NCBI RefSeq assembly: GCF_988243305.1
Contig: NZ_OZ547136.1
DNA: 64,000 nucleotides
Direction: 5' to 3' (one strand)
This document shows positions 16,330 to 32,717 of the stretch, piece by piece. Below the pieces are notes generated by a model. That model was not told where the DNA came from and did not search any database. It saw only the letters and a program-made list of their open reading frames with translations. Within the stretch, counting starts at the first letter, position 1, and every line of letters starts with the position of its first letter. Both the position numbers and the translations under genes were made by a program.

Positions 16330-16466
16330 ATGGCAAAGCCGATCATCACGCTCAATGGCCTAAAAATCGTCATTATGTTGGGAATGCTGGTCATTATTCT
16401 CTGCGGTATCCGTTTTGCCGCCGAGATCATCGTGCCGTTTATTCTCGCATTATTTATTGCTGTTAT
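16330..16466 (+). pseudogene. tqsA: tqsA (AI-2 exporter) 5' fragment, codons 1-45, truncated by the insertion
   Basis: [45 protein letters not shown] then runs into island DNA (IYNLFHITR*). The rest of the gene resumes in frame at 31788. Confidence 0.95.
16458..16466 (+). repeat. attL core TGCTGTTAT
   Basis: Identical 9-mer at 31787-31795. Joining the flanks restores the tqsA reading frame (..FIAV|[10 protein letters not shown]..). Confidence 0.85.
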
Positions 16467-16540
16467 ATATAACTTATTTCACATAACACGTTGATTTAAT
16501 TAAATAATTTTCACCGCAAAAAGTGCCAAAAATCGCAAAA

Positions 16541-16606
16541 TGACTACACCAGTGACTACACCGTTCGGTGCACTGTATGAAACAACGTGGAACAAATAGA
16601 CACAAG
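16541..16606 (+). repeat. Left arm repeat: TGACTACACC x2 followed by 10-bp-phased AACAA units
   Basis: TGACTACACCAGTGACTACACC is identical to 31637-31658. The downstream AACAACGTGGAACAAATAGACACAAG resembles 31678-31705. Candidate integrase/excisionase arm sites. Confidence 0.7.
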
Positions 16607-16825
16607 AAATATACAGGCGGATCATCTTTCCAGGGGGAAGCGCACCAATTCATGAGGGGCGTTAATGTCGATATGGGGATCCCCACCTACCGGAATTTTT
16701 TTCCGGTTAAACGTTAATCAGGCTGGTGGGCTTTACCTGTTCGGTAGGTGTTATGATTATCGTAATACCTTTCCCCCAATGGGGTAAAAGCATCAACCGT
16801 AACGAAAGTCGTTATGGTTGCCACT

Positions 16826-16899
16826 GATACCCCAAATTTGGGTATCACGAGTAAGACCCAAAATCTGGGTGTTACTCTTACTACCCAAACTACGGGTAG
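16826..16899. repeat. Three tandem inverted-repeat units of the form ACCC-N5-7-GGGT, starting about 26-30 bp apart
   Basis: GATACCC-caaattt-GGGTATC (16826-16846), ACCCA-aaatc-TGGGT (16856-16870) and CTACCC-aaactac-GGGTAG (16881-16899). They lie in non-coding DNA. Confidence 0.6.
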
Positions 16900-16918
16900 T
16901 TTCCGTAGTTTCATGGTC

Positions 16919-16938
16919 GAGTTGCAGATCTGCAACTC
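16919..16938. repeat. Perfect 20-bp palindrome GAGTTGCAGATCTGCAACTC
   Basis: Read directly; the sequence is its own reverse complement. It lies 20 bp from the third inverted-repeat unit. Confidence 0.8.
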
Positions 16939-17231
16939 CCCCATTAACCACAGGCGAATTTCCGCCTTCGGTCATTCCTTAATCATCTGCGTAATCATAA
17001 TGATTATTCAGCAAGCGCAATTTTGCACTTTGCTTAAAGTTCAGCGAGTTACCGCGCCGACTTCCTCAAATTGAGGTTTCCGAAAATATCAGCGGGTTAG
17101 CGATTAAGCTGATCATTAATTAAACTGCGAAAATTTCGTAGTTTGTGACTGTCTTTCAGGCAGCTTGTTAACAGTCCTCAGAAGCGAGGGATGTAGCCAC
17201 CCATTTTTGGTCCGTCGGGAATATCAACCAG

Positions 17232-17513
17232 TTACCGCCGCAACCGCTCCGGCTTCTTCCAGTGGTACGTTATTTTCTCCTTCTCCCGATACATCTCCAC
17301 GCGGCGACGGTAGGCCAGCAACTCAAGAACTCTGGTTCGTATGTTGCGCATATCCACGCCATTAAGTTCTATACCATCACGGCGCATCACCTCAGCAACA
17401 ACACGCGCATAGTTTTCGGCTGTCACGCTGTCCGGCTGCGTGGCCTGTTCGTCAGCCTGCTGGCTGATTCCGGCAACGCGGCGGATTAATCCCGTTATTT
17501 CGGCTTCTGTCAT
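17232..17513 (-). CDS. Hypothetical protein (93 aa), last gene of the packaging operon
   Basis: ORF directly downstream of terL (13-nt gap). It is charged with a basic C-terminus, and I recognise no family. Confidence 0.55.
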   Translation of the reverse strand: MTEAEITGLIRRVAGISQQADEQATQPDSVTAENYARVVAEVMRRDGIELNGVDMRNIRTRVLELLAYRRRVEMYREKEKITYHWKKPERLRR

Positions 17514-17526
17514 GCTGCTGACCTCA

Positions 17527-19188
17527 TTACACCCCGCTAAATTCTTCCAGTTTCTGGCGGTGGCTGTCGCTTATATCAAAAGCAAAATCCTCATGCTCTG
17601 CCTGGAATGTACCAAACGCCATCAGCGCCGCCACGCTCGGGTCTATCTTGTTCGGTGATTTTTTCTTGTTCGGCTTGATATTGGCGTTCGCGTCACTCTG
17701 CATCACGACGTTACTCATCGACCAGGACAACACCGGATCGCCACGATGCACAATCACCCTGCGGTTAACAAAAACTTCGAACGATTTCGCCGCCGGACTG
17801 AATCTGAGGTAGGTTTGCGGGAACGGCTCCACCTCAAAACCTGCCCCCTGTAATTGCGTTCTGAGATGCGTGGCGTTCCACGTATCAAAGCCCACCAGCC
17901 TGATATTAAATTTCTCCGCGTCCTGCATGATGTCATCTCTGATCCGGTCGTAATCAATGCAGTCGCCAGGCGTTGTGCGTATCCAGCCTGCTTTAGCCCA
18001 CTGACGATAGATGGCGCGGTTTTTATTGGCGGGGTTCTGTAGCTGAAATTCCGGCAGATAGTGACGGGAAACCAGCATAATGGTTTTACCGACCGGAAAG
18101 GCATAGCACACGCTGGAAATATCGCTGGTTGATGATAAGTCCAGCCCCGCGTAACACTCCTGGCCGTGTAAATCTTCCTCCGTGAACGTTCCGGCACACT
18201 CAGCCCATGCGCCGTTACCCATCCACGGGGTAGCCCCCAGGCACCAGATATTAAATCGCTTTGTCATCATCTCCACCCACTGCGACGGAATACCCCGCGC
18301 TTTCTGGATGGTTGAGGCCAGTTTTTCACGATCCACGGAAACATCAATATTAGGGTTCGCCTTTATCCACATCGCCGGATCATCAACCTCGTTTTCGTCG
18401 TCCAGTTCGTAAATCAGTACAAAAATTGAATCGTTGACCTCTTCGCCGTCCAGGATCTGGCAGCAATAATCATAGTGCTGCTTACAGGCTGAAACGACGT
18501 TACTGCCTGATGTGGTAATAGCAAATAACAGCCCTTCGGGACGTGCGCCCATCCCCAGCTCAAGCGCGGAATAAACGCCGTTATCGGGGTGCAAGTGGTA
18601 TTCGTCCACGATGGAAAGGCTGGGGTTTGTTCCCTCGATGGTTGCCGCTTTTGCTGCCAGCGGCTTTAACAGGCTGTTGCTTTTCGGGTGTATCACCTTA
18701 TGCGCCTGAATATTCACCCGCCTGCGTAACGGTCGGGATAAAAGGCACATCTGACGCGCATCATCAAAGACGATCCGCGCCTGGTCACGGCTCACCGCTG
18801 CGGTGTAAATATCCTGCTGACCGTTCTCCATAATCAGAAACCAGTTAGCCAGAATCGCGGCGGTCGTGGATTTCGCATTTTTGCGCGGCACTTCGATAAA
18901 GGCGCTCGTGTATTTGCGCCGTCCGGTGGCCTTAACCTTAAAGCCGAGGATGCACGCAAAGGCGAACTGCTGCCACGGCTCCAGCTCAATGGGTCTGCCA
19001 CGCATCGGCCCTTTTACGTGCGGGCACACCCTGGAAAAGGCAATAAACCGCTCCACAACCTCACGATCGAACGTGTAAAGGGGGCTTTCAAGGTCCGAAA
19101 AGTACCGTTTAACGGCCTGTTTCAGCCGTTTACAGGCCGGAATTTTGCCCGTTTTTACGTCTTCTGCGTACTTATTCCAGGCGGTCAA
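17527..19188 (-). CDS. terL: Terminase large subunit
   Basis: 553-aa ORF with Walker-A-like region VPRKNAKST, DEYH Walker B and a C-terminal nuclease-like half. Its position after TerS is typical of Terminase_1-family TerL. Confidence 0.88.
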   Translation of the reverse strand: MTAWNKYAEDVKTGKIPACKRLKQAVKRYFSDLESPLYTFDREVVERFIAFSRVCPHVKGPMRGRPIELEPWQQFAFACILGFKVKATGRRKYTSAFIEVPRKNAKSTTAAILANWFLIMENGQQDIYTAAVSRDQARIVFDDARQMCLLSRPLRRRVNIQAHKVIHPKSNSLLKPLAAKAATIEGTNPSLSIVDEYHLHPDNGVYSALELGMGARPEGLLFAITTSGSNVVSACKQHYDYCCQILDGEEVNDSIFVLIYELDDENEVDDPAMWIKANPNIDVSVDREKLASTIQKARGIPSQWVEMMTKRFNIWCLGATPWMGNGAWAECAGTFTEEDLHGQECYAGLDLSSTSDISSVCYAFPVGKTIMLVSRHYLPEFQLQNPANKNRAIYRQWAKAGWIRTTPGDCIDYDRIRDDIMQDAEKFNIRLVGFDTWNATHLRTQLQGAGFEVEPFPQTYLRFSPAAKSFEVFVNRRVIVHRGDPVLSWSMSNVVMQSDANANIKPNKKKSPNKIDPSVAALMAFGTFQAEHEDFAFDISDSHRQKLEEFSGV

Positions 19189-19528
19189 GCTCGTCCTCTT
19201 CTTCTGTTTCCGGTGGATTTTTACGGCGGCTTATCGGGTCAAAACCGAGCAAGGAGGCCATTTTTATCATCACCCTTTCAGCGTCGGATTTTGCGCTTAA
19301 TGCGGGGTTTCTGCTCTCGCCGCCCTGACTGTTAACAATGCTGAACCCGCGCGCCGCAAGGTCTGCAACGGCTTTCCGGTAAATGGAGTAGTTGACACAA
19401 TACAGTTCCAGATTGCTCCAGTCGGCGGGGGTCAGGTCTCCCCGTTCCGCAAGCTGCCGCGATTTTTCCCGCCACTGCTTCACGGCGATGTCATCCAGGT
19501 AGGCGGGGGCTTTCGGTGGTCTTGCCAT
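19172..19528 (-). CDS. terS: Terminase small subunit, P27 family
   Basis: 118 aa. MARPPKAPAYLDDIAVKQWREKSRQLAERGDLTPADWSNLELYCVNYSIYRKA...GFDPISRRK matches the P27/Terminase_4 pattern. It overlaps terL by 17 nt. Confidence 0.85.
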   Translation of the reverse strand: MARPPKAPAYLDDIAVKQWREKSRQLAERGDLTPADWSNLELYCVNYSIYRKAVADLAARGFSIVNSQGGESRNPALSAKSDAERVMIKMASLLGFDPISRRKNPPETEEEDELDRLE

Positions 19529-19651
19529 ACTTATTTTTTCGCCAGATTATTTTTCAAAAAATTCCCGTGCATAAAAATTTGAGGAGGCGTTCGGTGCCCG
19601 GCGGGGTCGGGTTTGTCCTGAAAACGCCCCCCACCCCGTCATACAGCCTCA
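19529..19651 (-). other. Putative cos region (GC-rich segment with nested inverted repeats between the HNH-side genes and terS)
   Basis: Non-coding 123 bp containing GGCGTTCGGTGCCCGGCGGGGTCGGGTTTGTCCTGAAAACGCCCCCCACCCCG. The HNH / gap / TerS arrangement is that of HK97-like cos phages. The cleavage site itself cannot be read from the sequence. Confidence 0.35.
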
Positions 19652-19825
19652 TCAGCGATTGCGGAAACATTCCATAACCTCGCGGTCACGGTCGGTTAAT
19701 CGCTTCGCTGTGATGCGTTCTGCGCGTCCTGACGCTTTATCTTTATGCCCTGTTTCCTGTGTCTTCCATGCGTCACGCTGCCTTATAAGTCCACGGATAA
19801 GGCGGTTTTGTTCCCGCTCATTCAT
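19652..19825 (-). CDS. Small basic hypothetical protein (57 aa), start overlapping the HNH stop
   Basis: The ATG lies inside GCTGATGAATGA, overlapping the HNH stop (coupled arrangement). Product MNEREQNRLIRGLIRQRDAWKTQETGHKDKASGRAERITAKRLTDRDREVMECFRNR is Arg/Lys-rich. It is the 3' third of the 134-aa track ORF, whose remainder overlaps HNH. Confidence 0.4.
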   Translation of the reverse strand: MNEREQNRLIRGLIRQRDAWKTQETGHKDKASGRAERITAKRLTDRDREVMECFRNR

Positions 19826-20258
19826 CAGCGTCATACATCCAGTTATTGCGGTTAGCGGACCGTTCTTCCTCTTCACGAAATCCACCTGCGGCACGCTTGC
19901 TTTTTGTTGCCGGATCAAGCCATTTCGTTTTCTGGTTATGACACGCCTGACACAATGGCTGATGGTTCCATTCGGGCCAGAAGAGAACATCATCGCCGCC
20001 ATCGATGGGGATAATGTGATCCACCACCACGGCGGGCGTATATATCCCCTTCTCAAGGCATCGCACGCATAACGGGTTTTTACTCAGATACATGGCGCGG
20101 TATTTGTCCCACTGTCTGGAGTACCCACGCGCGCGGCGGTGTCCTCGTCTGGCATCCTCTGCACGCCATGCCGCCCGCCTGTGCTCCTCACACTTACCGG
20201 ACTTAACGCGCCTGTTACAGCCTGGTTCTGTACATCGTCTTAATGGTTGCCACGGCAT
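19818..20258 (-). CDS. HNH endonuclease (terminase-associated)
   Basis: 146 aa with CxxC...VDHIIP...N...LCxxCH HNH/zinc motifs (CVRC, DHIIPIDGG, CQACHNQKT), adjacent to the terminase genes. Confidence 0.88.
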   Translation of the reverse strand: MPWQPLRRCTEPGCNRRVKSGKCEEHRRAAWRAEDARRGHRRARGYSRQWDKYRAMYLSKNPLCVRCLEKGIYTPAVVVDHIIPIDGGDDVLFWPEWNHQPLCQACHNQKTKWLDPATKSKRAAGGFREEEERSANRNNWMYDADE

Positions 20259-20554
20259 CAGTACACCCCCACATCACGGTAAGCCGTCCAGAGTGCGCCT
20301 ATCGTCATGGGTACGCGCGTTTTTGCGTTATCCGCGACAATCTGGCGATTTTCATACAGGTGAGCGATAAACATCATGCAGCCAATCTTTATGGCTGGCG
20401 TGAACTCCAGCCCGTCATCAAAGCGCCTGCCTATGTGTATCTGGCACGCCTCAAGCGATGCGGCAATGTATCCGCTGATTAACTGGTCTTCATCGTCGCC
20501 ATCGATGCGGCAATGGAGTTTCACTTCTTCCAGGGTGATAAGTTCTTCTGTCAT
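20258..20554 (-). CDS. gp6-like head-tail connector protein
   Basis: 98 aa. MTEELITLEEVKLHCRIDGDDEDQLISGYIAASLEAC... is the typical Phage_connect_1 N-terminus. The stop overlaps the HNH start (TGATG). Confidence 0.8.
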   Translation of the reverse strand: MTEELITLEEVKLHCRIDGDDEDQLISGYIAASLEACQIHIGRRFDDGLEFTPAIKIGCMMFIAHLYENRQIVADNAKTRVPMTIGALWTAYRDVGVY

Positions 20555-20889
20555 TTTTCCGCGCCCTCACGACAAAGAATTTCAAGGCGTGTCCTGGCGG
20601 CATCCGGCAACGGTTGCCCGATGATATTCAGTACACGCCCCGCCAGCGGCCCTGTATTGACCTTTATCCGACTGGTGGCGTTGATGTCCTTCCGGTAGCG
20701 TATCCATATCCTTACCGTTCCAGTCGCCAGCTCTGCACCTGATGAAATGGCCTCCTTGCTGCTGATCATGTTCACGCTTGCCCAGAGTGTGTGACCGTCC
20801 ACCCACGTTTCGAGTATTTCGCCGGTTATATCCCTGGTCTGTTTCAGGGTCTGAATCGTTACCCTGTCACGCAGTCGCCCTATGTTCAT
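20551..20889 (-). CDS. Head-tail joining (head closure/adaptor, gp7-like) protein
   Basis: MNIGRLRDRVTIQTLKQTRDITGEILETWVDGHTLWASV...VRIWIRYRKDI matches the Phage_H_T_join pattern. ATGA overlaps occur at both ends. Confidence 0.8.
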   Translation of the reverse strand: MNIGRLRDRVTIQTLKQTRDITGEILETWVDGHTLWASVNMISSKEAISSGAELATGTVRIWIRYRKDINATSRIKVNTGPLAGRVLNIIGQPLPDAARTRLEILCREGAEK

Positions 20890-22097
20890 TCCGGTTTTTC
20901 TCCCTCGCTGATTTTTACTTCCTGTTTCCATGCCTGGCTGAACTCATCACCACCATCACGCGGGGACAGCCCTTCACGTTCGCGGGCTTCGTTCGGGCAC
21001 ATAACGCCGGATTTGATGCCGCGTTCATAGGTGGCAAAGCGTTCGCCAGGTGTGGCCCGTAACAGGTCCGCGCTGTCAAACTCCACCTGATACCGGATAC
21101 CAGGTACAGGCGAGGCCACCAGCAGGGCGTTTTTTATCTGCTGCTCAAAGTTCGCCAGCCACGGGCGCATCGTCATGGTGAGAAATGCGCGGCTTGCCTC
21201 GCTGAAGTTGCTGTAGGTGCTGTTGCTGTATTCCTGCAAAAAAATCGGCGAGACGTTGAACATTCGGGCGATGTCTTCAATGGTGAAGCGACGGGAGGCC
21301 AGCCATTCGGCATCCTGATTACTCATGCCCAGCTGCTGATAGCTCATCCCCCCTTCAAGGATGGGCGTTTTTCCGGCGTTTCTGGCCCCTTTGTAGCGTT
21401 CCAGTGCGGCTAATGCCTGTTTGCCCTTCACGCCGTCCAGCCATTCGCCTGACGTGATAACCCCTGCCGCCATCATGCCATCACGCATCACGCTCGCGCC
21501 GTGGCGTTGTTGGGCCAGCCCAAGCCCCAGCGATTCGCGGCAGATGGTTACAGGTGAGCGCCCCATAAAACCGTCATCCGTGGAGTAACGAAGGTGGAGA
21601 ACCTCCCACGGTAAATAGTTGCGGGTGTTTCCGGTGTAGGCGTCAGTGATGCAGTAGCGCCAGTTATGATCACCTGTCTGCTCCACGTTCACCGACTGCG
21701 GCGGGTAAGGATGTAAAGCCACCGGAAAACCATCACGCCCCCACTGAATCACCGCATAAGCATTACCGTTTAACAGGCAGTGGCGGATCATCATTCGCTT
21801 AAACTGGTAGGGAGTCTGCCACGCGTTCGGGCGCTCGTTGAGGATGTGATCGACCGGATGAGAATCAAGCCACTCGCGGGCCTCCTTCCCCTTCTCATTG
21901 CGTACCAGGTACAGGTAACACGGCATGGTAGCCACCGCCTCAGAGATGACCGTCACGGCGTTCATGACGGCGGGCAGTGATTCCGCTGTCCCCGATGATA
22001 CGTACTCACCCGCCCCCGTGTTCGATGTGCCAGCCAGCGCCATAAACTCATCAAGCGTCATGCTGCGCTGCTCTTTTTTTCTTCTGAAAGGCCACAT
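20886..22097 (-). CDS. Portal protein, HK97 family
   Basis: 403 aa with typical HK97-type portal features (..ESLPAVMNAVTVISEAVATMP.., C-terminal acidic tail). It lies next to the protease. Confidence 0.88.
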   Translation of the reverse strand: MWPFRRKKEQRSMTLDEFMALAGTSNTGAGEYVSSGTAESLPAVMNAVTVISEAVATMPCYLYLVRNEKGKEAREWLDSHPVDHILNERPNAWQTPYQFKRMMIRHCLLNGNAYAVIQWGRDGFPVALHPYPPQSVNVEQTGDHNWRYCITDAYTGNTRNYLPWEVLHLRYSTDDGFMGRSPVTICRESLGLGLAQQRHGASVMRDGMMAAGVITSGEWLDGVKGKQALAALERYKGARNAGKTPILEGGMSYQQLGMSNQDAEWLASRRFTIEDIARMFNVSPIFLQEYSNSTYSNFSEASRAFLTMTMRPWLANFEQQIKNALLVASPVPGIRYQVEFDSADLLRATPGERFATYERGIKSGVMCPNEAREREGLSPRDGGDEFSQAWKQEVKISEGEKPE

Positions 22098-22098
22098 A

Positions 22099-22671
22099 TC
22101 ACACCCCCGCTAAATCCACCCACCAGCGGCGATTATCCGCACGCGGCATTTTTTCGGGGTGCTGCTCATACAGGGAACGGCGGGCCAGCTCCACGCCGGA
22201 ATCGGGGTAAGCCGGTACCGATGTAACGGTAATTTCGTACAGTTCCGCCACCAGCACGGTGCGCACGCATGGATCTGTTGTGGTATCCCATACATCCTTA
22301 CGGGAGCGAAAGCCAAAGCTCATCCCCGAGATGTCCCCACGCTTAACCAGTTCGATAACGTCGCGCCCTGTACTGGTATCCGGTGGGGTCAGTTCAAAGC
22401 GTAACCCTGTTTCGTCCTCTTCCAGTTTCAGCGTGCCGGAACGGGTGCGCCCCAGTAACATGCTGTGGTCATGCTCATACAGGCCGCGAACGTCATTACC
22501 CGCCGCAAGCCACTCAGTAAACGCCCCCCGCTGGAATTTTTCGTAAAACTCCCCCCATAGCAGTTCTGAAAGCTTATCCCAGCGAACAACGTAGCCCGTC
22601 AGCGTACCGGCTCCGCTGGTAGTGATTTCCGATGACCGGATTTCCATACTCTTCATAATTTTTTCACCCAT
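22099..22671 (-). CDS. Prohead maturation protease, HK97 (S78) family
   Basis: 190 aa. ..GYVVRWDKLSE...RGLYEHDHSMLLGRT...GDISGMSFGF.. is the pattern of HK97 gp4-like proteases. It sits between the MCP and portal genes. Confidence 0.85.
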   Translation of the reverse strand: MGEKIMKSMEIRSSEITTSGAGTLTGYVVRWDKLSELLWGEFYEKFQRGAFTEWLAAGNDVRGLYEHDHSMLLGRTRSGTLKLEEDETGLRFELTPPDTSTGRDVIELVKRGDISGMSFGFRSRKDVWDTTTDPCVRTVLVAELYEITVTSVPAYPDSGVELARRSLYEQHPEKMPRADNRRWWVDLAGV

Positions 22672-22710
22672 AAAACACTAAAGGGGCTTTTAAGCCCCTT
22701 CTGTATGCTG

Positions 22711-23868: not shown

Positions 23869-24083
23869 AAAAAAAAGTCCTGGGGTTAAGTAAGGAACTC
23901 CAGGACGCGGCAAACACTCAACCGTTTTTCATAAGGAAATCAGCAATCGCACCGATCGTTTTCCCGCCTGGTAATGAATATTGGCGAGCACATTAACAGG
24001 CGGGAAAGTGGCCCCAGCGTCCTGGCACCACGGGCGAGAATAATCATGATTCAGTTCGGGTAAAATATGCCGATCCGCTCAGT

Positions 24084-24110
24084 GAACAACGTGGAACAAC
24101 CACGAACAAA
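24084..24110 (+). promoter_or_regulatory. Three 10-bp-phased GAACAA units upstream of the capsid operon
   Basis: GAACAAcgtgGAACAAccacGAACAAataa lies 216 bp upstream of the MCP ATG, between the terminator at 24121-24150 and the operon. A 23-nt stretch matches 30289-30311 (inverted) with 2 mismatches. Confidence 0.55.
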
Positions 24111-24120
24111 TAATTTACAA

Positions 24121-24150
24121 AAAATAACAAAAAGCCGGATTGCTCCGGCT
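24121..24150 (-). terminator. Rho-independent terminator (minus strand)
   Basis: On the minus strand, AGCCGGAgcaaTCCGGCT is followed by TTTTTGTTATTTTTT. It lies 20 nt after the stop of the 74-aa gene. Confidence 0.8.
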
Positions 24151-24169
24151 GTATGTGCTGTATGGGTGC

Positions 24170-24394
24170 TCAGTCTCTGATCCCTTTCAGAAATTCTATC
24201 AATGCATCTGTCTGTTCAGGATTTACTGCCAGCATTTCACCGGATAGCGCGCAACGAACAAAACCATGATGATCCTTTTCAATCAGTGCGCCCGTCTCCA
24301 GGAATGCGCGGTAATCATTGATGCTCATCGTCTCCATGTTGTCAGCATGGTATTTATCACGCTGTTTTAATATCTCATCAAATTTCATCGGCAT
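24170..24394 (-). CDS. Hypothetical protein (74 aa), moron-like unit bracketed by twin terminators
   Basis: ATG at 24394 is preceded by AGAGGAAAAAACA. Product is MPMKFDEILKQRDKYHADNMETMSINDYRAFLETGALIEKDHHGFVRCALSGEMLAVNPEQTDALIEFLKGIRD. I recognise no family. Confidence 0.6.
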   Translation of the reverse strand: MPMKFDEILKQRDKYHADNMETMSINDYRAFLETGALIEKDHHGFVRCALSGEMLAVNPEQTDALIEFLKGIRD

Positions 24395-24488
24395 TGTTTT
24401 TTCCTCTGTTGTGTCTGTTTGTTTCAGATAGTAACTATGCCTGACCGTGACGAAAACCCGGTAATGCGCCATACCGTTTCAACTGGTG

Positions 24489-24513
24489 CAAAAAAAGCCG
24501 GATTTCTCCGGCT
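24489..24513 (-). terminator. Rho-independent terminator (minus strand), near-duplicate of 24121-24150
   Basis: On the minus strand, AGCCGGAgaaaTCCGGCT is followed by TTTTTTTG, downstream of the PerC-like gene. Confidence 0.8.
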
Positions 24514-24563
24514 GTGTGATTAGCTGTCCTGGTAATTGCGCCATATTTCATCACCAGCACCAT

Positions 24564-24791
24564 CTATCCCCATTTCGGCATAAGTGCGATCGACTGCCTT
24601 TTCAGGTCTCCGTAATTATCCGGTGGCTCCGGTGGCCTCTGTGCCTTCCTGGAACATTCCAGCCGTCGCATCGTGATGTGATGCCGTTCCTTGTCTGTCT
24701 CCACCAGCAGCATGACTTCACCCCATCGCGCCGACGCCCTCCGGTAAAATCCTTTAGCCTCGAGTTCCTCCGCTATGCGGTCATGTACCAT
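24564..24791 (-). CDS. PerC-family (PerC/Pch-like) transcriptional regulator
   Basis: ATG at 24791 is preceded by GGGGGTGAGG, right after the ssb stop. The 75-aa product MVHDRIAEELEAKGFYRRASARWGEVMLLVETDKERHHITMRRLEC... resembles the PerC N-terminal signature (..AE.LE.KG.WRRAA.RW..). Confidence 0.65.
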   Translation of the reverse strand: MVHDRIAEELEAKGFYRRASARWGEVMLLVETDKERHHITMRRLECSRKAQRPPEPPDNYGDLKRQSIALMPKWG

Positions 24792-24801
24792 CCTCACCCC
24801 C

Positions 24802-25212
24802 TCAGAACGGAATACCGTCACCGTAAGGGTCATCGCCTCCCGCTGGTGGCTGATTACCCTGTGTGCCTGTGGTTTTGCGTCTGTTCCCGCCAGGACGTGC
24901 CGCACGGGCACTGATTACGCTGTCTGCAATAACCTGCCAGCCCTGCCGCGTTTCTCCGTTCTGTCCGGTCCACTGGCTTACCTGCATCGTGCCGGATACG
25001 CTGGCAACATCGCCTTTTTGATGTTTAGCCAGGAAGTCGGCCTGTTTGCCAAATGCGATGACCGATAACCATAACGTCGCCTGTCCGTCCTGTGCCTGGC
25101 TGCATGGCAAAGATACCGCCATACGCGCCAGCGTCATCGGTGTGCCCTTGCTGGTCTGTTTTACCTGCGGGTCGTCCACCAGCCGCCCGTAAGCGGCTAT
25201 CTGTGCCGTCAT
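24802..25212 (-). CDS. ssb: Single-stranded DNA-binding protein
   Basis: 136 aa with an OB-fold-like N-terminus, a Gly/Pro/Gln-rich linker and a C-terminal acidic tip ..GGDDPYGDGIPF, the canonical SSB tail. Confidence 0.85.
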   Translation of the reverse strand: MTAQIAAYGRLVDDPQVKQTSKGTPMTLARMAVSLPCSQAQDGQATLWLSVIAFGKQADFLAKHQKGDVASVSGTMQVSQWTGQNGETRQGWQVIADSVISARAARPGGNRRKTTGTQGNQPPAGGDDPYGDGIPF

Positions 25213-25460
25213 AATTCCACCTCTCCGGTTTTAACGTTGATGGTTGTTACCTGTTCCGCTTCGGCAATCTCCCGTTCTGTCAGCGTGGCAAAGTTTGCCG
25301 CCGCCGTGGTCATGAATGCGCTTATCAGGTCGGGATGTTCCTTCGCGTATCCTTCCCGCGTGTGGCGGTCTATCGTTCTGATTGCCACCTTTAAAGCGTG
25401 CTCAGTCATGTCTAACGCTTTATATTTTGGCTCTGTTCTGTCTCTGCGTTTTTGGGTCAT
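25209..25460 (-). CDS. Hypothetical protein (83 aa)
   Basis: ATG at 25460 (MTQKRRDRTEPKYK...) with GAGAGG upstream is preferred over 25490, which would overlap the iterons. ATGA overlap with ssb. Confidence 0.55.
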   Translation of the reverse strand: MTQKRRDRTEPKYKALDMTEHALKVAIRTIDRHTREGYAKEHPDLISAFMTTAAANFATLTEREIAEAEQVTTINVKTGEVEL

Positions 25461-25472
25461 TTCTCGCAACCT

Positions 25473-25662
25473 CTCACTTTTTCGCCTCACTTTTTCAAGC
25501 GTCTCACTTCGTCGCAGTTGGGATTTTCGGTTTTTCTATGTGTGTGTTTCATAAGTATTTTTTTACCCCTCACTTTTGAGGATGTATACAGGTCGAAAAG
25601 TGAGGGAGAGCGGGCTAATTTTGGCCCTCTTTCTATCCCCCTCGCTTTTGCTCCTCACTTTT
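25473..25662. repeat. Iteron array (CCTCACTTTT x7, one inverted) with AT-rich core: putative origin of replication
   Basis: Copies lie at 25473, 25485, 25502, 25568, 25596 (inverted), 25640 (1 mismatch) and 25653. They flank a T-rich stretch at 25520-25565, directly downstream of the helicase gene. Confidence 0.6.
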
Positions 25663-27061
25663 ATAGCGGCGCTACATCATCCCCATCGATACGAATAACC
25701 CCATCTTTTTCCAGCTTGTACAGCCAGCGCCGGAAGTTTTTCATTTCATACCCCAGTTTTTTCATGTCATCACGTAACAGCGGGATCGTGCACTTGTCGC
25801 CGTTCTGTGTGCGTGAACGGATGCACCCCCATAGCGCGGTATGGTTTTCCGTCTTGTTCCCTGCCTCCTCGATGCGCTCCAGTTCAACAGGAGGGCGCGG
25901 ATCATCCACCACTACCAGCGACGTGATTAATTCACCGTCAGCGTCGGTAAAAAGCTCCACCACGCGTAAGTCATATGCGGCTTCTTTGAGTTCCTCCGCG
26001 TCCTTCATTTTGGTGCATGAGATAACCAGCGCTTCGCTTCCTGCGTCCTCCCTGCGTATCCGGTATTCAGCATCCAGCGAAGCACGAAATGCACTGGAAC
26101 CGCGCGCGCCTTTCGTCTCATCCTTGCCGGAATGGTGAACCACCAGCACCGTGGCCCCTGTGCGTCGTTTCAGTTCGTCACAACCACGGATAAACGCCCC
26201 CATATCACGGGAATCATTTTCATCATTCCCACCAAAGCAACGCGCCAGCGTATCCAGAATAATCATGCGTACAGGTTTACCCGTTTCCCGCTCCACCTGA
26301 CGGGCAGCGATAACCATTTCATCAACATCAAGCGGGGCAGCCGGAAAGATGGGGCGGTTTACCAGATACAGATTTTTCACCTGCTCATCGTGCACAACCT
26401 CCCAGGCTTTTACACGACGCGGAACACCTATACCGCCTTCACCAACCACATAGAGAACCGCACCATGTGCAACCCTGCGGCCTCCCCACTGGCGACCAGT
26501 GGCAACATGGCACGCCCACGATCCGGCAAGGAATGATTTATAGGACCCGCTAGCCCCGTATATGCTGCATAGCGATACCGCCGGAATAATCCCCTTAACC
26601 ACGTAATCCAGTTGCGTGTCGTATCCGGTAGATCCAACGCTCATCGGTAGCGTGGTTTTTCGCTGGTGGTTTTTTTCTTCCACCGGCTCTTTCCCGCGCA
26701 CCCGTTCCAGGTATTCGCGCCAGTTCTCCCGCATATGGCTGTGCATCCCTTCGGGGTAATAATTCGCATCAGTTACACCCGCCGCCGCCAGCTTGTGCGC
26801 AATGGCATTAATATTTGATGGCCTGATGTGGCCTGCCTTGTACAGCCGGACACAATAGCGCCCCTCGTCGATGATTCTCAGGTCTGCCAGTTCATCCAGT
26901 TGATCATCAGCCAGCACAACGGGAGGCACATTATCGCCAGCCAGTCGCCCGTCCTGTTCCTGCCACTGTTTCGCATGTGCCCAGGCATCACTACCCGCAA
27001 AAATAATGACTTCGGTCATCTTGTCGTAAGGCTGTTTTTTTAAGTTCGGTGCGCTTTTCAT
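25661..27061 (-). CDS. Replication protein: RepA/AAA_25 (RecA-like) helicase-type ATPase with extra N- and C-terminal domains
   Basis: 466 aa. Features are P-loop-like GASGSYKS, Walker B MIILDT, LVVHHSGKD and ARGSSAF motifs typical of RepA-like helicases. The C-terminal part looks like a winged-helix domain. Confidence 0.75.
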   Translation of the reverse strand: MKSAPNLKKQPYDKMTEVIIFAGSDAWAHAKQWQEQDGRLAGDNVPPVVLADDQLDELADLRIIDEGRYCVRLYKAGHIRPSNINAIAHKLAAAGVTDANYYPEGMHSHMRENWREYLERVRGKEPVEEKNHQRKTTLPMSVGSTGYDTQLDYVVKGIIPAVSLCSIYGASGSYKSFLAGSWACHVATGRQWGGRRVAHGAVLYVVGEGGIGVPRRVKAWEVVHDEQVKNLYLVNRPIFPAAPLDVDEMVIAARQVERETGKPVRMIILDTLARCFGGNDENDSRDMGAFIRGCDELKRRTGATVLVVHHSGKDETKGARGSSAFRASLDAEYRIRREDAGSEALVISCTKMKDAEELKEAAYDLRVVELFTDADGELITSLVVVDDPRPPVELERIEEAGNKTENHTALWGCIRSRTQNGDKCTIPLLRDDMKKLGYEMKNFRRWLYKLEKDGVIRIDGDDVAPL

Positions 27062-27357
27062 TTCTTGCCCCTGAATCCGTTAATCATGGTTTTCAGCTTC
27101 TGGATGTTTGCCCGTGCCCTGGCGTTGCTGGTGGGCACGTTATGCGGCGCGGTCTGTACCAGAGAAAAATCACGCCGGAACTGATAAACAGGCATCACGC
27201 AATCATATTCGTAACCTTCACGGCGGTAGGTTACGCGCCGTTCTTCCACGCCCTTAATCATTACCGTGCCGCCGTACTGGTCGCGGTAAATATCACCGCG
27301 CGTAAATTTAGGGTGAGTGTTGCCACTGGCAGTTAAGCCAGAATATTTAAGTTTCAT
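27058..27357 (-). CDS. Hypothetical protein (99 aa; possibly DUF4222-like)
   Basis: ATGA overlap with the helicase start. GDIYRDQYGGTVMIKGVEERRVTYRREGYEYDCVMPVYQFRRDF resembles a small prophage family, recalled only loosely. Confidence 0.55.
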   Translation of the reverse strand: MKLKYSGLTASGNTHPKFTRGDIYRDQYGGTVMIKGVEERRVTYRREGYEYDCVMPVYQFRRDFSLVQTAPHNVPTSNARARANIQKLKTMINGFRGKK

Positions 27358-27362
27358 TATTT

Positions 27363-27596
27363 TTATTCTCCGGTGTGCTGTTCTTTATATCTGTCGTGCA
27401 ATAGATCTATTTCTTGCAGTTCCATTATTACAGGCTCAAGAAGCGTTATTAATGCCGTGGCAATTCTTGATTTTTGTTTGTCGCGTTCATTGTCGCCAAG
27501 TGTTTCAAGCCATATGCGCAATATTTCCAGCATGTTTTCACTGTGAGAAAGTGCAAGAAATACGCGGTCTATTGTTTCGTGGTAAATATCACGCAT
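27363..27596 (-). CDS. Hypothetical protein (77 aa)
   Basis: Tightly packed minus-strand ORF (MRDIYHETIDRVFLALSH...) whose start lies 2 nt after the upstream stop. Confidence 0.5.
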   Translation of the reverse strand: MRDIYHETIDRVFLALSHSENMLEILRIWLETLGDNERDKQKSRIATALITLLEPVIMELQEIDLLHDRYKEQHTGE

Positions 27597-27597
27597 A

Positions 27598-27819
27598 TTA
27601 ATCCCCGTCCGTCGTTTTTCTTAAAATAACCTCTGTCACGAAATCAGCATAATCGGCGGCGATATTCAGTACATCAAGCCCCGTTGATTTATATTCTCTC
27701 GTGGAAAGTAAGAAAAAAGCCGCTCTAATAAGTTCTGGCATTGACGAAAGCGCATCAGCCGCATCATCAGGAACGCCGGAAAATTCCTGTTTCAGGGAAT
27801 TAAAACGATCATCACGCAT
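27598..27819 (-). CDS. Hypothetical protein (73 aa)
   Basis: ATG at 27819 lies 2 nt downstream of a G9 run (minus strand). Acidic helical protein, MRDDRFNSLKQEFSGVPDD... Confidence 0.5.
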   Translation of the reverse strand: MRDDRFNSLKQEFSGVPDDAADALSSMPELIRAAFFLLSTREYKSTGLDVLNIAADYADFVTEVILRKTTDGD

Positions 27820-28034
27820 AACCCCCCCCCATTTTCACAATCAGCAACAAGAATATTTTTAGCGTCATTCAGCGACCGCGTTGCGATGTATCGGATACAT
27901 TCCAGGGCGAACTGTGTCCGGTCTTTCTGTTCTTCTCCCTGCGCAAGCTCTGCAGTGCATTCAATATCGATAAGCGCGTGCATCAGCGTAGTGAGCGCGG
28001 CGGCTGCTGCGTCCGGTGTGGTTTTATTGCACAT
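27792..28034 (-). CDS. Hypothetical protein (80 aa)
   Basis: ATG at 28034 is preceded by AGGAGG (MCNKTTPDAAAAALTTLMHALIDIECTAELAQGEEQ...). It overlaps the icd-like 3' end by 11 nt. Confidence 0.55.
   Translation of the reverse strand: MCNKTTPDAAAAALTTLMHALIDIECTAELAQGEEQKDRTQFALECIRYIATRSLNDAKNILVADCENGGGLCVMIVLIP
27822..27830. repeat. Homopolymeric C9 (plus) / G9 (minus) tract
   Basis: Read directly: a CCCCCCCCC a. It lies in the 3' end of the 80-aa ORF and in the RBS position of the 73-aa ORF. Confidence 0.95.
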
Positions 28035-28224
28035 GGCACACCTCCTGACGAATACGGGCGGCGAATACAGCAACACAACCGGACGGGCAACGGCTACGCG
28101 CTTCGCGTTCCGTCCAGGCGGTTACGTGGATGATTTGAGATTCTCCGGCACTTAGTGCCAGAAAACGCCACACAAAGGCCGTTTGTGTGTGTATAAGGCG
28201 TGGTATATGATTTACGGCAACCAT
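28024..28224 (-). CDS. Icd-like (host cell-division inhibitor family) small protein
   Basis: ATG at 28224 is preceded by AGGAG. The 66-aa product ..FVWRFLALSAGESQIIHVTAWTEREARSRCPSGCVAVFAARI.. fits the Icd-like pattern (aromatic core, EREAR, FAAR). It is the only credible part of the 344-aa track ORF. Confidence 0.6.
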   Translation of the reverse strand: MVAVNHIPRLIHTQTAFVWRFLALSAGESQIIHVTAWTEREARSRCPSGCVAVFAARIRQEVCHVQ

Positions 28225-28312
28225 AACGGCTCCTAGTTTACGTTGTTGGTTAGACGCCCCGTATGTGTTCCCAGCACTGCGGGGCGTTGATTTTTGTGTA
28301 ATGGCAAGTACA

Positions 28313-28358
28313 ATGGTAATTACCATGTAGGTATAGTAATGAAGGGTAATTACCATGT
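28313..28358. promoter_or_regulatory. Two copies of GGTAATTACCATGT exactly 30 bp apart (first within perfect 14-bp palindrome ATGGTAATTACCAT): putative operators in a divergent control region
   Basis: Copies at 28315-28328 and 28345-28358; the second covers the start codon of the Arc-like gene. A TATAGT -10-like hexamer at 28332-28337 lies between them. Confidence 0.6.
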
Positions 28359-28528
28359 CAACACCATTAGAAAAACGTTCGCCTCCATACCAAATGCGAT
28401 TACCGGAAGACTTCAGAGCGCAGCTAGAAGAAGCAGCTAAGGCCGATGGCGACACATCTTTAGCCACTTGGATTAAACGCGTTCTCCGCAAAGAATTACA
28501 GCAACGCGGCATAGAGCCAAAAGGTTGA
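28355..28528 (+). CDS. Arc/Mnt-family ribbon-helix-helix DNA-binding protein (57 aa)
   Basis: Read manually because it is below the track cutoff: MSTPLEKRSPPYQMRLPEDFRAQLEEAAKADGDTSLATWIKRVLRKELQQRGIEPKG. The beta-strand (YQMRLP) plus two helices parallel P22 Arc (PQFNLRWPREVLDLVRKVAEENGRSVNSEIYQRV). It is one of only two plus-strand genes in the island. Confidence 0.7.
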   Translation: MSTPLEKRSPPYQMRLPEDFRAQLEEAAKADGDTSLATWIKRVLRKELQQRGIEPKG

Positions 28529-28549
28529 ATTTCAGAAGGAGATAAAATA

Positions 28550-28702
28550 ATGAACTGGCTGTTACATACCCTCCCAGGTCGCATTCTCATTGCACTAATT
28601 ATTTTATGGATTTTGTACCAATTCGGTTTTTTCGATTCGCTTTGGAAGCCTGACTGTTCCGTTAACCCTGGCGATGTACTGAAAGGCTGTAAAAATGGCT
28701 GA
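28550..28702 (+). CDS. Small single-pass membrane peptide (50 aa)
   Basis: AGGAGA RBS lies 6 nt upstream of the ATG. Product MNWLLHTLPGRILIALIILWILYQFGFFDSLWKPDCSVNPGDVLKGCKNG* has one TM helix and a two-Cys C-terminal tail. It is followed by two hairpins (28705-28719, 28735-28749). Confidence 0.6.
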   Translation: MNWLLHTLPGRILIALIILWILYQFGFFDSLWKPDCSVNPGDVLKGCKNG

Positions 28703-29057
28703 TCAGGGTTACTCCCTGTAATGCCTTTAACTGGCCCTCTTAAAGAGGGTTGGTTATCTTCGCAGCTCTCTACGTTTTTCGTCGGAACCTCTGAACCTAA
28801 GCAGTGTTGATGTTCAGGAGAACCCGAATACTGTTCGTGTTCGTTGCTCGCCAATTCTCGCGTTTCGCGATAATCAAAATGATTCAATGGGTTGAGATGT
28901 CCGTACGTTAAACGTACGCGGTTAATTTGTACATGCGAATTTCGTCGGCTCAAATTCTGCGCAACCCTGCTTGAGTTATGCAAATAGCACGCGGCTAACT
29001 CACAAGGATTTGAGCGCCCCCAAACGGGGGAGCGCAAAATTTTAGGCATAAGACGCA

Positions 29058-29771
29058 TCAGCGAATCTCCAACACTGACGATGAAGTGATCAGGCTGGCG
29101 AACGCATCCATACGGCGGGCAACCTCACGCACCGCATCGCCTGGACTCATGTCATTACGCACCGCCTCATTAAAGGCCGCCTGTTCGATTTTCTGCATCA
29201 CTACCAACAGCCCCAATTGCTGTTCGTCTGCGGTACCGCGTTCACCATCAGACAAACCAGCCACGCGGTTTTCAGCGCGGGCCAGATTGATGTAATGGTG
29301 CCGTTGTGCGCCCAGAGCTTTTAATCTGTCGCGGCTTTCGTGATAGCCAGGCAGGTACTCACGGCGGATAGGTTCTGCGGCGCGGCGCTTAGTGAATGCC
29401 TTCGTAACATCCAGTTTGAACTGGTTAATACGCTCAGGATCACGCCCTCGGGTGATACGCAGCAGATAGTCGAGCTGCGGCTCATTCAGCAGATAACTAA
29501 TCTCAGGACGCCCACGCTTTCGGCCGGATTTTCCCGATTTCAAATCGGTTAATTCCTTGAGTGACTGACGAGGCAGTGATCCCAGCTCGCGCAATCTGCT
29601 CTGGTGCGATTTAATCGTCGCGCTTAAGCTTTCATGTTGTATTCCGGCTCGCTCTGAAATAACGCGGGAATCGATACGCGGCTCCGATTTGTGATTAATT
29701 AAAATATCGCTCTGGCTGGCTTCAGGGCGAACGAATCCCCGCCCACGTTCTGGCGTATATTCAATCTTCAT
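29058..29771 (-). CDS. Phage regulatory protein, tentatively Rha/antirepressor-like
   Basis: 237 aa. The N-terminal region IDSRVISERAGIQHESLSATIKSHQSRLRELG resembles the Rha-type HTH region. The functional assignment is weak. Confidence 0.6.
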   Translation of the reverse strand: MKIEYTPERGRGFVRPEASQSDILINHKSEPRIDSRVISERAGIQHESLSATIKSHQSRLRELGSLPRQSLKELTDLKSGKSGRKRGRPEISYLLNEPQLDYLLRITRGRDPERINQFKLDVTKAFTKRRAAEPIRREYLPGYHESRDRLKALGAQRHHYINLARAENRVAGLSDGERGTADEQQLGLLVVMQKIEQAAFNEAVRNDMSPGDAVREVARRMDAFASLITSSSVLEIR

Positions 29772-29828
29772 GGTTATAGCTCTGTGTTCAGATGATTGAT
29801 GTGTGGCGGCTGCGTGCCGCCAGCGTGA

Positions 29829-30017
29829 TTAATGAACTGCCTTGCAGCTATCCTTCCAGGCCAGAACCTCGGATAAAGACCAGCCAACGGAACGACCGCC
29901 AAGTTTACGACGTGATGGGAATTGTCCGGCCTTTTCCAGGCGGTAGCGACACGTACGGCTAAGGCCGGTTAGTTTTTCGCATTCTTTTTCACGTATAAAC
30001 CGATCAGTGCTTAACAC
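29829..30017 (-). CDS. alpA: AlpA-family regulator / excisionase-like protein
   Basis: 62 aa with a GTG start after AAAGGGGG. ..IREKECEKLTGLSRTCRYRLEKAGQFPSRRKLGGRSVGWSLSEVLAW is the classic AlpA/Phage_AlpA signature. Confidence 0.88.
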   Translation of the reverse strand: MLSTDRFIREKECEKLTGLSRTCRYRLEKAGQFPSRRKLGGRSVGWSLSEVLAWKDSCKAVH

Positions 30018-30166
30018 TATTGCCCCCTTTCGTTTCTTAAAGAGTCATCAGGTGTCTTATTGTGTCGTATTGTTCCCGCTAGAGTGATAAATGGCAAATA
30101 CTGAGGATGTATGATTTACAGAAAATGAAACAGTAAGAATAAAATCTTTTAAATTCATGTTAATAC

Positions 30167-30200
30167 AAAGGCATAAAATATTGTTTCATGCCTTTTTTCT
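30167..30200 (+). terminator. Plus-strand intrinsic-terminator-like hairpin in the int-alpA spacer
   Basis: AAAGGCAT-13 nt-ATGCCTTT is followed by TTTCT on the plus strand, antisense to the island's main transcription direction. On the minus strand it lacks a T-run. Confidence 0.45.
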
Positions 30201-30288
30201 CGCTCTTTAAAGAGTGATTCGCTAGTGTATAAAAAACCAGTAACGCATTAAAAATCAGCTACTTATAAATCCGTACGCTTTTTCGCCT

Positions 30289-30342
30289 CTTGTTCGTAGT
30301 TGTTCCACATTGTTGCTCATTGTTGCACGTTGTATCTGTTCG
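30289..30342 (-). promoter_or_regulatory. Five 10-bp-phased TGTT units (complement of the AACA/GAACAA units) between int and alpA
   Basis: tgttcgtagt tgttccacat tgttgctcat tgttgcacgt tgtatctgtt. These have inverted orientation relative to the copies at 16582, 24084 and 31678. Confidence 0.55.
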
Positions 30343-30381
30343 CATATACAGTATGCGCATACTGAAAAAACACGAAAAAAA

Positions 30382-31611
30382 TTATTTTCTTCTGGCTACT
30401 GGTAGCGTGGTTACGTTTTCATGTGTTCCCGCCAGTATCCCTAACCGCTCCGTCCACATATCCAGCGCATTGCGTTTAGCATCCAGATAACGGGAATGAT
30501 TATAAACTCGCTGCATTCCTGGCATCTGGTGGCCTGTAAGCTGCTCCACGACATGCGGATCAACGCCTAAATCGTTCAGCATGGTTGTAAAGGTGCGCCG
30601 GATGTCATGCAGTGACCAGTGAGGATGATTAAGCCTCCTGTGCGCTAATCTTCCATACTGCGATACGCTGGCCTCCTGTTTCACTTCCCCCAGCAATAAG
30701 CCCGTGTGCCTGTTCTGCTCCACCAGCTGCGTGACGAACGGCAGGATCGCTTCCGGTATGGGCCGGAATATTGCGACCTTCGTTTTGCTGTGCTCCTTCG
30801 GAACGGTCCATAGCATTTCCGTAAAATCCCACTCCCCGATCTCCGATAACCTCAGTTCTACCGTTCTGGCTCCGAAGACAATCAGGAGGCGGATTAACGC
30901 GACGTAGTAAGGGGAGAATATTTTTTTGTCCAGTGCCTGCAATAATTCGCCAAGTTCTTTGTTACTTAAGACACGTTCGCTTATATCCGGTTTTTTCCCA
31001 ACGTCCGCCACGTTCAGATCGTCCAGAACGTTGCTGATTGCATAGCGCCGCCTACGGCAGAACTTAAGCGCCTGTTTGCACGCCTGTAGCACGAATCCGG
31101 CAGTAACAGGCGTTCGCTTTGCCACCTGGTCAAAACAGGCCAGCCAGTGCCGTAGCTCGCATTTATCCAGCGGCATAGCACCAATCTGCTGTATTACGTG
31201 ATTATTAAGTCGCCTTTTCAGGGCGATATAATCCACGCGGTTTTCCTTTACGTAATACTCAAGCCAGTAGGTGAGCGCATCGCCAACCGTTACGGGCTTT
31301 AACGCTTCCTGTACGGTGTAATTCATCTCATGACGTGGATTTTTCCCCTCAGCCAGCCATGTGCGACACTGTGCGGCTTTTTCCCTGGCTGCTTTCAGGC
31401 TCAGATCAGGATAACTTCCCAGCTTAATGCGTTCGGGTCGTGTCTCCCTTCCCGTTCCGGCCCTGTATGTGAAATACCAGGTCAATTTCCCTGATGTTAA
31501 ATATTTCACGCTCAGGTTTCCGCCATCACTATAAAACGTGTTTTTCTCCGCTGGCTTACCATGAAGTTTCCTTAGCAAGGTATCGCTCAGTTTGTTCATT
31601 GCTCTGCTCAC
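30382..31611 (-). CDS. int: Tyrosine recombinase/integrase, P4-type (DUF4102 arm-binding N-terminus)
   Basis: 409 aa. The N-terminal ..LSVKYLTSGKLTWYFTYRAG..IKLGSYPDLSLKAAREKA.. is typical of P4-like integrases. Catalytic residues lie in ..HDIRRTF.. and ..HQMPGMQRVYNHSRY. GTG start at 31611 (SD GAGGGGG), or ATG at 31599. Confidence 0.92.
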   Translation of the reverse strand: MSRAMNKLSDTLLRKLHGKPAEKNTFYSDGGNLSVKYLTSGKLTWYFTYRAGTGRETRPERIKLGSYPDLSLKAAREKAAQCRTWLAEGKNPRHEMNYTVQEALKPVTVGDALTYWLEYYVKENRVDYIALKRRLNNHVIQQIGAMPLDKCELRHWLACFDQVAKRTPVTAGFVLQACKQALKFCRRRRYAISNVLDDLNVADVGKKPDISERVLSNKELGELLQALDKKIFSPYYVALIRLLIVFGARTVELRLSEIGEWDFTEMLWTVPKEHSKTKVAIFRPIPEAILPFVTQLVEQNRHTGLLLGEVKQEASVSQYGRLAHRRLNHPHWSLHDIRRTFTTMLNDLGVDPHVVEQLTGHQMPGMQRVYNHSRYLDAKRNALDMWTERLGILAGTHENVTTLPVARRK

Positions 31612-31636
31612 GTTTTACCCCCTCTTTACGAAAAAG

Positions 31637-31705
31637 TGACTACACCAGTGACTACACCGATCGTTGCACAAAGGGCTACAACGTGAAACAAGCTGGAACA
31701 AGGAA
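31637..31705 (+). repeat. Right arm repeat: TGACTACACC x2 followed by 10-bp-phased ACAA units
   Basis: The 22-mer is identical to 16541-16562, followed by acaacgtgaa acaagctgga acaagg. It lies between the int start and the attR core. Confidence 0.7.
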
Positions 31706-31786
31706 AATCACAAATCTGTTGATAATCAAAAACATAATGCACAGCCTGAAACATTATGAAACAGCAAAAAACACTAAATGATAAAA

Positions 31787-31795
31787 TGCTGTTAT
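31787..31795 (+). repeat. attR core TGCTGTTAT
   Basis: Identical to 16458-16466. tqsA codons A44-V45-I46 resume here. Confidence 0.85.
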
Positions 31796-32693: not shown

Positions 32694-32713
32694 CGGCCTC
32701 CGCAGAGGCCGTC
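32692..32713. terminator. Bidirectional hairpin between convergent tqsA and pntB
   Basis: GACGGCCTC-cgca-GAGGCCGTC lies between the two stop codons. Confidence 0.65.
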
Positions 32714-32717
32714 AGGG

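Follow-up and report, generated by a model that had tools for sequence, protein, structure and literature searches.

Phage-inducible chromosomal islands of the capsid-forming type (cf-PICIs) were described in 2022–2023, and the mechanism of their tail piracy and the structure of their T=4 capsid were reported in 2025. Experiments with EcCIEDL933, the prototype from E. coli O157:H7 EDL933 (Alqurainy et al. 2022/2023; capsid structure PDB 9GYI), and with its relatives have established that heads are released filled with DNA but without tails, that the gp6/gp7-like proteins determine which tails are used, and that the capsid is small; EcCIEDL933 builds it from an island-encoded major capsid protein (MCP). 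Proteobacterial cf-PICIs share the order capsid, protease, portal, connectors, hnh, terS, terL (bioRxiv 10.1101/2022.09.08.507074), the position downstream of alpA is variable according to a 2025 cf-PICI paper, and such islands occur in ~13% of Enterobacteriaceae genomes (PMC10085698). Here we describe an element of 15,338 bp in a 64,000-nt stretch of E. coli DNA (the window; contig NZ_OZ547136.1, assembly GCF_988243305.1), which occupies positions 16458–31795 within the tqsA coding sequence and is very probably an intact cf-PICI of the EcCIEDL933 lineage, integrated there by a P4-type integrase.

We located EcCIEDL933 in the EDL933 chromosome (NZ_CP008957.1) at ~1,680,100–1,695,600, between roxA and phoQ. 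The two islands match in gene order and are close in size (15.3 kb here and 15.4–15.5 kb in EcCIEDL933), and the block at 17220–25462, which runs from the ssb region to the open reading frame (ORF) after terL, is 96.7% identical at the nucleotide level. The packaging proteins and AlpA are equal in length and 93.8–100% identical. The MCP agrees with the solved EcCIEDL933 capsid chain at 384 of 385 residues and carries the N-terminal region of ~100 aa that is removed on maturation. Portal, adaptor and connector are all present, and within the capsid-to-terL core divergence is greatest in the adaptor, which has 7 substitutions in 112 residues. The differences from EcCIEDL933 are modular. The attachment site lies in the tqsA coding sequence with the core TGCTGTTAT, in contrast to the roxA–phoQ intergenic site of EcCIEDL933 with the core AAATATGTCC; the replication initiator is a 466-aa RepA/AAA_25 helicase instead of a 710-aa DUF927 primase; the gene after alpA and the block of small ORFs differ; and an additional hairpin-rich non-coding segment of ~400 bp follows the 93-aa ORF.

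Genes were assigned by hidden Markov model (HMM) scans with Pfam, PHROGs and NCBIfam, with PADLOC used for defence functions (Table 1). An earlier note on this DNA, made from the sequence alone, had named a series of gene functions, and all of them are recovered by the scans except that its Rha-like assignment is weak: the match of the 237-aa protein encoded downstream of alpA scores 25.8 bits, below the Pfam cut-off of 29.9. The gene itself recurs in another cf-PICI. Also as that note had it, all genes but two lie on the minus strand (24 minus-strand genes, with a plus-strand RHH ORF at 28355–28528 and a 50-aa ORF at 28550–28702), and iterons accompany repA: all five copies of AAAGTGAGR in the window fall within 190 bp just downstream of that gene, a clustering that supports an iteron-type origin of replication (ori). 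Its statement that tail, lysis and CI/Cro functions are missing stands as well, since Pfam, PHROGs, NCBIfam and PADLOC find no tail, holin, endolysin, spanin, CI/Cro or defence family in any island ORF, the small ones included. Every ORF is full-length, and the island contains no insertion sequence (IS) element and no frameshift.

All 11 core functions on the SatelliteFinder list (int, alpA, rep, capsid, protease, portal, adaptor, connector, HNH, TerS and TerL) are present and the forbidden ones are absent as far as tested; therefore, the island is assigned to type A cf-PICIs. The tyrosine integrase sits at one end of an element inserted site-specifically between att repeats, an AlpA-type regulator adjoins int, and the island has its own replication module and ori (RepA and five iterons). 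It likewise encodes its own MCP, prohead protease, HNH endonuclease, TerS and TerL, in the published proteobacterial order. HNH endonucleases act as packaging co-factors in HK97-type cos systems. By sequence identity, capsid and TerL belong to the satellite clade, with the MCP 99.7% identical to the prototype as against at most 40% for the full-size phages listed, and TerL 98.4% identical to the prototype. The class proposed in the earlier note, a cf-PICI-type island, is thus upheld by core functions, gene order and packaging identity alike, and nothing in the island sequence argues against it.

The insertion is precise. The 9-bp direct repeat TGCTGTTAT lies at both ends exactly where the earlier note had placed it, and beyond these two att copies there is one further copy in the whole 64 kb. 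The left copy corresponds to tqsA codons 43–46 and reading resumes at 31796, so that tqsA is split into 16330–16466 and 31796–32693. When the flanks are joined in silico with a single repeat copy, a full-length TqsA ORF is restored; therefore, the excised circle would measure 15,329 bp. Against intact tqsA of the best-matching complete E. coli genomes, the 420-nt rebuilt junction has 100% identity, and 5167 of 5426 E. coli genomes contain it as a single contiguous match (at least 80% query coverage); some 260 of the 5426 complete genomes have no contiguous junction at this site. The arm repeats that had been noticed inside both ends are also present: a direct repeat of 76 nt, 76% identical between the ends and ~75–80 bp inside each, contains a tandem pair of GTGACTACACC at 16540–16562 and at 31636–31658. 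The rest of the window consists of ordinary chromosomal E. coli sequence that spans ynfD to rsxA. The gene for the autoinducer-2 (AI-2) exporter TqsA is interrupted after codon 46. Its downstream part, in which a GTG at 31809 is the sole start, is missing ~50 residues at the N-terminus, so that tqsA probably stays inactive for as long as the island is in place. That the insertion serves as a reversible switch for AI-2 export is speculative.

Table 1 Features of the island, in window coordinates. Identities are to the corresponding EcCIEDL933 protein or region.
Feature	Position	Strand	Evidence or description
attL core	16458..16466	+	9-bp direct repeat TGCTGTTAT inside tqsA
attL-proximal arm region	16537..16612	+	2x (A/G)TGACTACACC, then 2x 10-bp-phased [CG]NAACAA
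Non-coding array	16800..17000	.	Five stable hairpins/palindromes; wider block 16822-17220
93-aa conserved hypothetical protein	17232..17513	-	phrog_1561; 87% identical to the gene after terL
TerL	17527..19188	-	ATPase and nuclease domains; 98.4% identical
TerS	19172..19528	-	Terminase_4, P27 family, 1e-23; 100% identical
Predicted cos region	19529..19651	-	Intergenic; nearly identical
60-aa protein	19652..19834	-	phrog_3173; 100% identical to the ORF at the 'gene 1792' position
HNH endonuclease	19818..20258	-	HNH 1e-8; 99.3% identical
gp6-like head-tail connector	20258..20554	-	Phage_connect_1 6e-12; 99.0% identical
Head closure/head-tail adaptor (gp7-like)	20551..20889	-	Phage_HCP 1e-23; 93.8% identical
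Portal	20886..22097	-	Phage_portal 8e-91; 99.3% identical
Prohead serine protease	22099..22671	-	Peptidase_S78 7e-48; 97.4% identical
Major capsid protein, HK97-fold, 385 aa	22711..23868	-	Phage_capsid 2e-61; 99.7% identical
Phased AACAA repeats, candidate regulator site	24085..24129	+	Upstream of the capsid operon, just past a terminator hairpin
74-aa hypothetical protein	24170..24394	-	phrog_1957; twin terminator hairpins on either side
PerC-family transcriptional activator	24564..24791	-	HMM match
SSB	24802..25212	-	99.3% identical
83-aa hypothetical protein	25209..25460	-	phrog_1231
Putative ori	25472..25661	.	Five AAAGTGAGR iterons downstream of repA
RepA-family helicase, 466 aa	25661..27061	-	AAA_25, E = 2e-43
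DUF4222 protein	27058..27357	-	Pfam
Three small hypothetical genes (77, 73, 80 aa)	27363..28034	-	phrogs 2196, 24341/2512, 5146
Icd-like protein	28024..28224	-	NF033153
Plus-strand pair, variable accessory cargo	28355..28702	+	57-aa Arc/RHH-like ORF and 50-aa ORF with a single transmembrane helix
237-aa variable gene downstream of alpA	29058..29771	-	Weak Rha-like DNA-binding domain
AlpA regulator	29829..30017	-	Phage_AlpA E = 5e-17; 100% identical
Four 10-bp-phased TTGTTNN repeats (inverted copies)	30290..30334	-	Between int and alpA
P4-type tyrosine integrase	30382..31611	-	Arm-DNA-bind_3 and Phage_integrase; 91% identical
attR-proximal arm region	31633..31708	+	Both repeat types of the attL side
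attR core	31787..31795	+	9-bp direct repeat TGCTGTTAT

The head and packaging genes come from HK97-type families (Phage_capsid, Peptidase_S78, Phage_portal, HNH, Terminase_4 and TerL), and HK97-like siphoviruses, including the helper HK106, have in common with the island an HK97-fold MCP whose maturation depends on a protease, as well as cos packaging with the help of HNH. It is nevertheless very improbable that the element, instead of being a dedicated satellite, is what remains of an HK97-like prophage after deletion of the tail and lysis modules. The island reads MCP, protease, portal, gp7-like, gp6-like, HNH, cos, terS, terL, in contrast to the phage order terS, terL, portal, protease, MCP, gp6, gp7, tail, so no simple deletion yields it, and it has no tail module, lysis cassette or CI/Cro-type immunity region. 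In a tblastn search with the MCP, the full-size phages among the matches listed are at most 40% identical; the 'phage' MCPs of at least 57% identity belong to two genomes of 15–16.5 kb, a fragment of 3.8 kb that carries no annotation and one Klebsiella record of 106 kb known from the listing alone. Megablast against 50,697 phage records returns no long nucleotide match, only short ones of 76–79% identity that cover at most 24% of the island, and the best of them (24% of the island at 78% identity) is a satellite-sized record of 16.5 kb. The EcCIEDL933 head is T=4 without a covalent cross-link, whereas HK97-like phages have T=7 heads. In ~40 IMG/VR loci whose MCP is at least 98% identical, terL is followed directly by the contig end or a host gene (a 486-aa ORF, PhoQ by length and position) and never by a tail module, and the ORF layout fits int, rep, MCP, portal, terL where the fragment is long enough. 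The element is therefore complete, as had been claimed, and not a truncated prophage. The att repeats are intact, and the same 15-kb unit is found at different chromosomal sites, namely tqsA (here and in E. coli 14EC001) and roxA/phoQ (O157:H7). The left half (int, alpA, icd, DUF4222, rep, ssb and perC) is a PICI module, ~96% identical to that of classical E. coli PICIs of the EcCICFT073 type. This common half, together with an integrase, AlpA and Icd-like protein that are typical of P4-like elements, is what would recommend reading the element as a remodeller of helper capsids, either a classical PICI or a P4-like satellite, and the classical islands also share the 93-aa ORF and the non-coding blocks downstream of it at the far end. 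That reading has practically no probability left, since the gene content already refutes it: the island has portal, adaptor, connector and TerL, all four of them forbidden in the classical PICI model and missing from classical PICIs, and no homologue of Sid, Psu, Delta or alpha-primase and no P2-type cos is detected in it. Moreover, classical PICIs use helper capsids and the helper terminase via Rpp and a lambda-like cos. A search of the island for the lambda/phi80-type cosN GGGCGGCGACCT with up to 3 mismatches gives nothing beyond chance; therefore, it has no classical-PICI cos. The near-identical prototype makes small capsids from its own MCP.

Some caveats apply to reading the island as an intact cf-PICI that behaves like the prototype. 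The 64-kb window contains no helper prophage. In its replication module and in the gene after alpA the island is unlike EcCIEDL933, so induction or replication could differ, and the 7 adaptor substitutions might alter tail choice. The cos placement given below draws on the ends of one related deposited genome and on near-identity to EcCIEDL933, and the 50-aa ORF with one predicted transmembrane helix could, formally, still encode a membrane-active peptide. The lack of a helper nearby and the exchanged modules would also fit a genuine cf-PICI by descent that persists as a non-mobilisable copy, either through its swapped regulatory and replication modules or for want of a compatible helper in the host; in EDL933, none of the 17 resident prophages (0/17) acted as helper for EcCIEDL933. 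We consider such a copy unlikely. Every ORF is full-length and free of IS elements and frameshifts, in contrast to 14EC001, the nearest same-site relative, which carries IS1. The RepA, iteron and DUF4222 module is common to many PICIs and cf-PICIs, including the cf-PICI of O157:H7 strain 2571, which has the same RepA; the same post-alpA gene occurs in another cf-PICI; and at least three public assemblies, each deposited separately and possibly not all from distinct strains, contain sequence-identical stretches that span most of the island. Two public draft assemblies (GCA_052135155.1 and Logan ERR4457445) match the window at 100% identity along 20.7 kb, a span that takes in most of the island and its flank.

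For the island as an intact cf-PICI, a life cycle can be proposed by homology with the prototype; in this copy, the steps from excision and replication to packaging and the use of tails would run as follows. AlpA expression, triggered by a helper phage or occurring spontaneously at a low level, would allow Int, presumably together with AlpA, to excise the 15,329-bp circle, which RepA would replicate from the iteron ori. Island MCP, S78 protease and portal would build a small T=4 head of ~47 nm. TerS, TerL and HNH, aided by the 60-aa protein, would cut cos in the gap that separates the 60-aa ORF from terS and package exactly one island genome, and the adaptor (head closure) and the gp6-like connector would complete the neck. 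The tail-less heads would become infective only after docking siphovirus-made tails, with lysis functions supplied from outside. Protein identity of 94–100% to EcCIEDL933 suggests that this copy makes small capsids of its own, packages itself alone and takes only tails from helpers. With the adaptor 94% and the connector 99% identical, HK106-type tails are the expected partners.

The cos site probably falls in the 123-bp interval 19529–19651, between the 60-aa ORF and terS, where one end of the 16.5-kb deposited genome of vB_KppS-Ant aligns at ~19615. This record (LR881103.1, Escherichia phage vB_KppS-Ant, derived from an induced prophage) has a cf-PICI layout and ends between its homologue of the 60-aa ORF and terS. 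A 765-aa gene after its terL (12216–14513) is labelled tape measure, a label without Pfam or PADLOC support, and is probably misannotated satellite cargo; it provides no evidence for tail genes in relatives of the island. The 60-aa ORF would be the published 'gene 1792' if the genes are numbered without gaps starting at '1786', the capsid gene, and mutation of 'gene 1792' in EcCIEDL933 severely reduced island transfer.

Islands covering at least 80% of this one are present in 58 complete E. coli genomes. The cf-PICI of E. coli 14EC001 (NZ_CP024127.1), which has counterparts in similar strains, occupies the same tqsA site, has the same RepA module and matches 89% of the island with 98% identity; its alpA-to-icd region is unlike that described here, and its IS1 lies between the portal and head-closure genes. 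Among solved structures, those next to the MCP after 9GYI are MCPs of the Rhodobacter capsulatus gene transfer agent (6TB9 and 6TBA, E ~3e-46), likewise a small-headed particle. In the IMG/VR contigs L059 and L061, whose MCP is ~70% identical, the ORF order terL, int, ..., MCP, portal, terL, ..., terL, portal suggests two tandem satellites in one predicted viral region.

RepA residues 1–122 are 67% identical to the N-terminus of the 710-aa DUF927 primase of EcCIEDL933 while the two proteins are elsewhere unrelated, which points to a shared N-terminal domain fused to swapped catalytic modules. In the plus-strand pair, the 57-aa Arc/RHH-like ORF matches phrog_228 (E = 1.5e-6) and the 50-aa ORF has no family match; relatives carry a YlcI/YnfO-like or HicB-like ORF on the opposite strand at this position. 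A mechanical ORF of 344 aa at 28024–29058 is rejected as a gene save for its last ~66 codons, which are Icd-like: its upstream part has no family matches, overlaps the Arc/RHH-like ORF that NCBI annotates on the plus strand, and is non-coding DNA in a relative. The remaining small ORFs belong to PHROGs of unknown function or have no match at all, and a PADLOC scan of nine accessory ORFs found no defence family. The 74-aa gene stands between two terminator-like hairpins (24129–24155 and 24492–24518, 93% identical), each consisting of AGCCGGAG[A/C]AATCCGGCT and a T-run after it. In the relative GCA_037059065.1 exactly 24155–24492 is missing, which suggests that the cassette was lost by recombination between the two hairpin repeats.

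The cis-acting DNA is the sole part of the island that lies outside the cf-PICI literature consulted. On the 3′ side of terL come the 93-aa ORF and 0.77 kb of non-coding DNA, which ends at attL and holds the hairpin array: three ACCC-N5-7-GGGT elements, then GAGTTGCAGATCTGCAACTC, and last a GGCG...CGCC stem. For 16800–17000, the RNA fold z-score amounts to -7.9 (minus strand) and -7.6 (plus strand). Missing from EcCIEDL933, the 400-bp hairpin block is present in some classical PICIs at the same position, and its hairpin part is 93% identical in the SCU-108 classical PICI, just after the 93-aa ORF and beside att. An Rfam scan of 15500–32800 (E up to 0.01) gives no match, and a covariation test of the array had three homologues only, 93–99% identical and with little variation. 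Distant blastn of the non-coding tail (16690–17231) against the 50,697 phage records finds nothing; therefore, the palindromes are not recognisably copied helper operators. In addition to the hairpins, four of the five clusters of 10-bp-phased [CG]NAACAA in the 64 kb lie in the island (16579–16595, 24093–24109, 30290–30326 and 31685–31701), in both att arms, in the int–alpA gap and upstream of the capsid operon, and nowhere else within it. These clusters are plausible candidate sites for AlpA/Xis-type or other island regulators, and if a regulator binds them, excision could be linked to late-gene expression. A broader proposal is doubtful: that hairpin block and phased repeats form a shared satellite control system in which AlpA-type sites couple excision to activation of the late operon, and the hairpins serve as a portable regulatory, small RNA (sRNA) or termination module exchanged between PICI classes.

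Taken as a whole, the element is a textbook member of a published family, and its exact mosaic is not new either. The mechanistic predictions of the earlier note, tail-less heads and tail choice by adaptor and connector, are already published (2022–2025) for EcCIEDL933 and its relatives; therefore, its interpretation is correct rather than novel. As such, the value of the island lies in a clean, uninterrupted example at the tqsA site, in contrast to the close same-site relative with IS1, in which att specificity, replication initiator and post-alpA gene have been swapped around a nearly invariant capsid and packaging block. For the host strain, the insertion means that the AI-2 exporter gene tqsA is cut short and, as a prediction, that the strain can export tail-less DNA-filled capsids, which could move between strains or species on free siphovirus tails.

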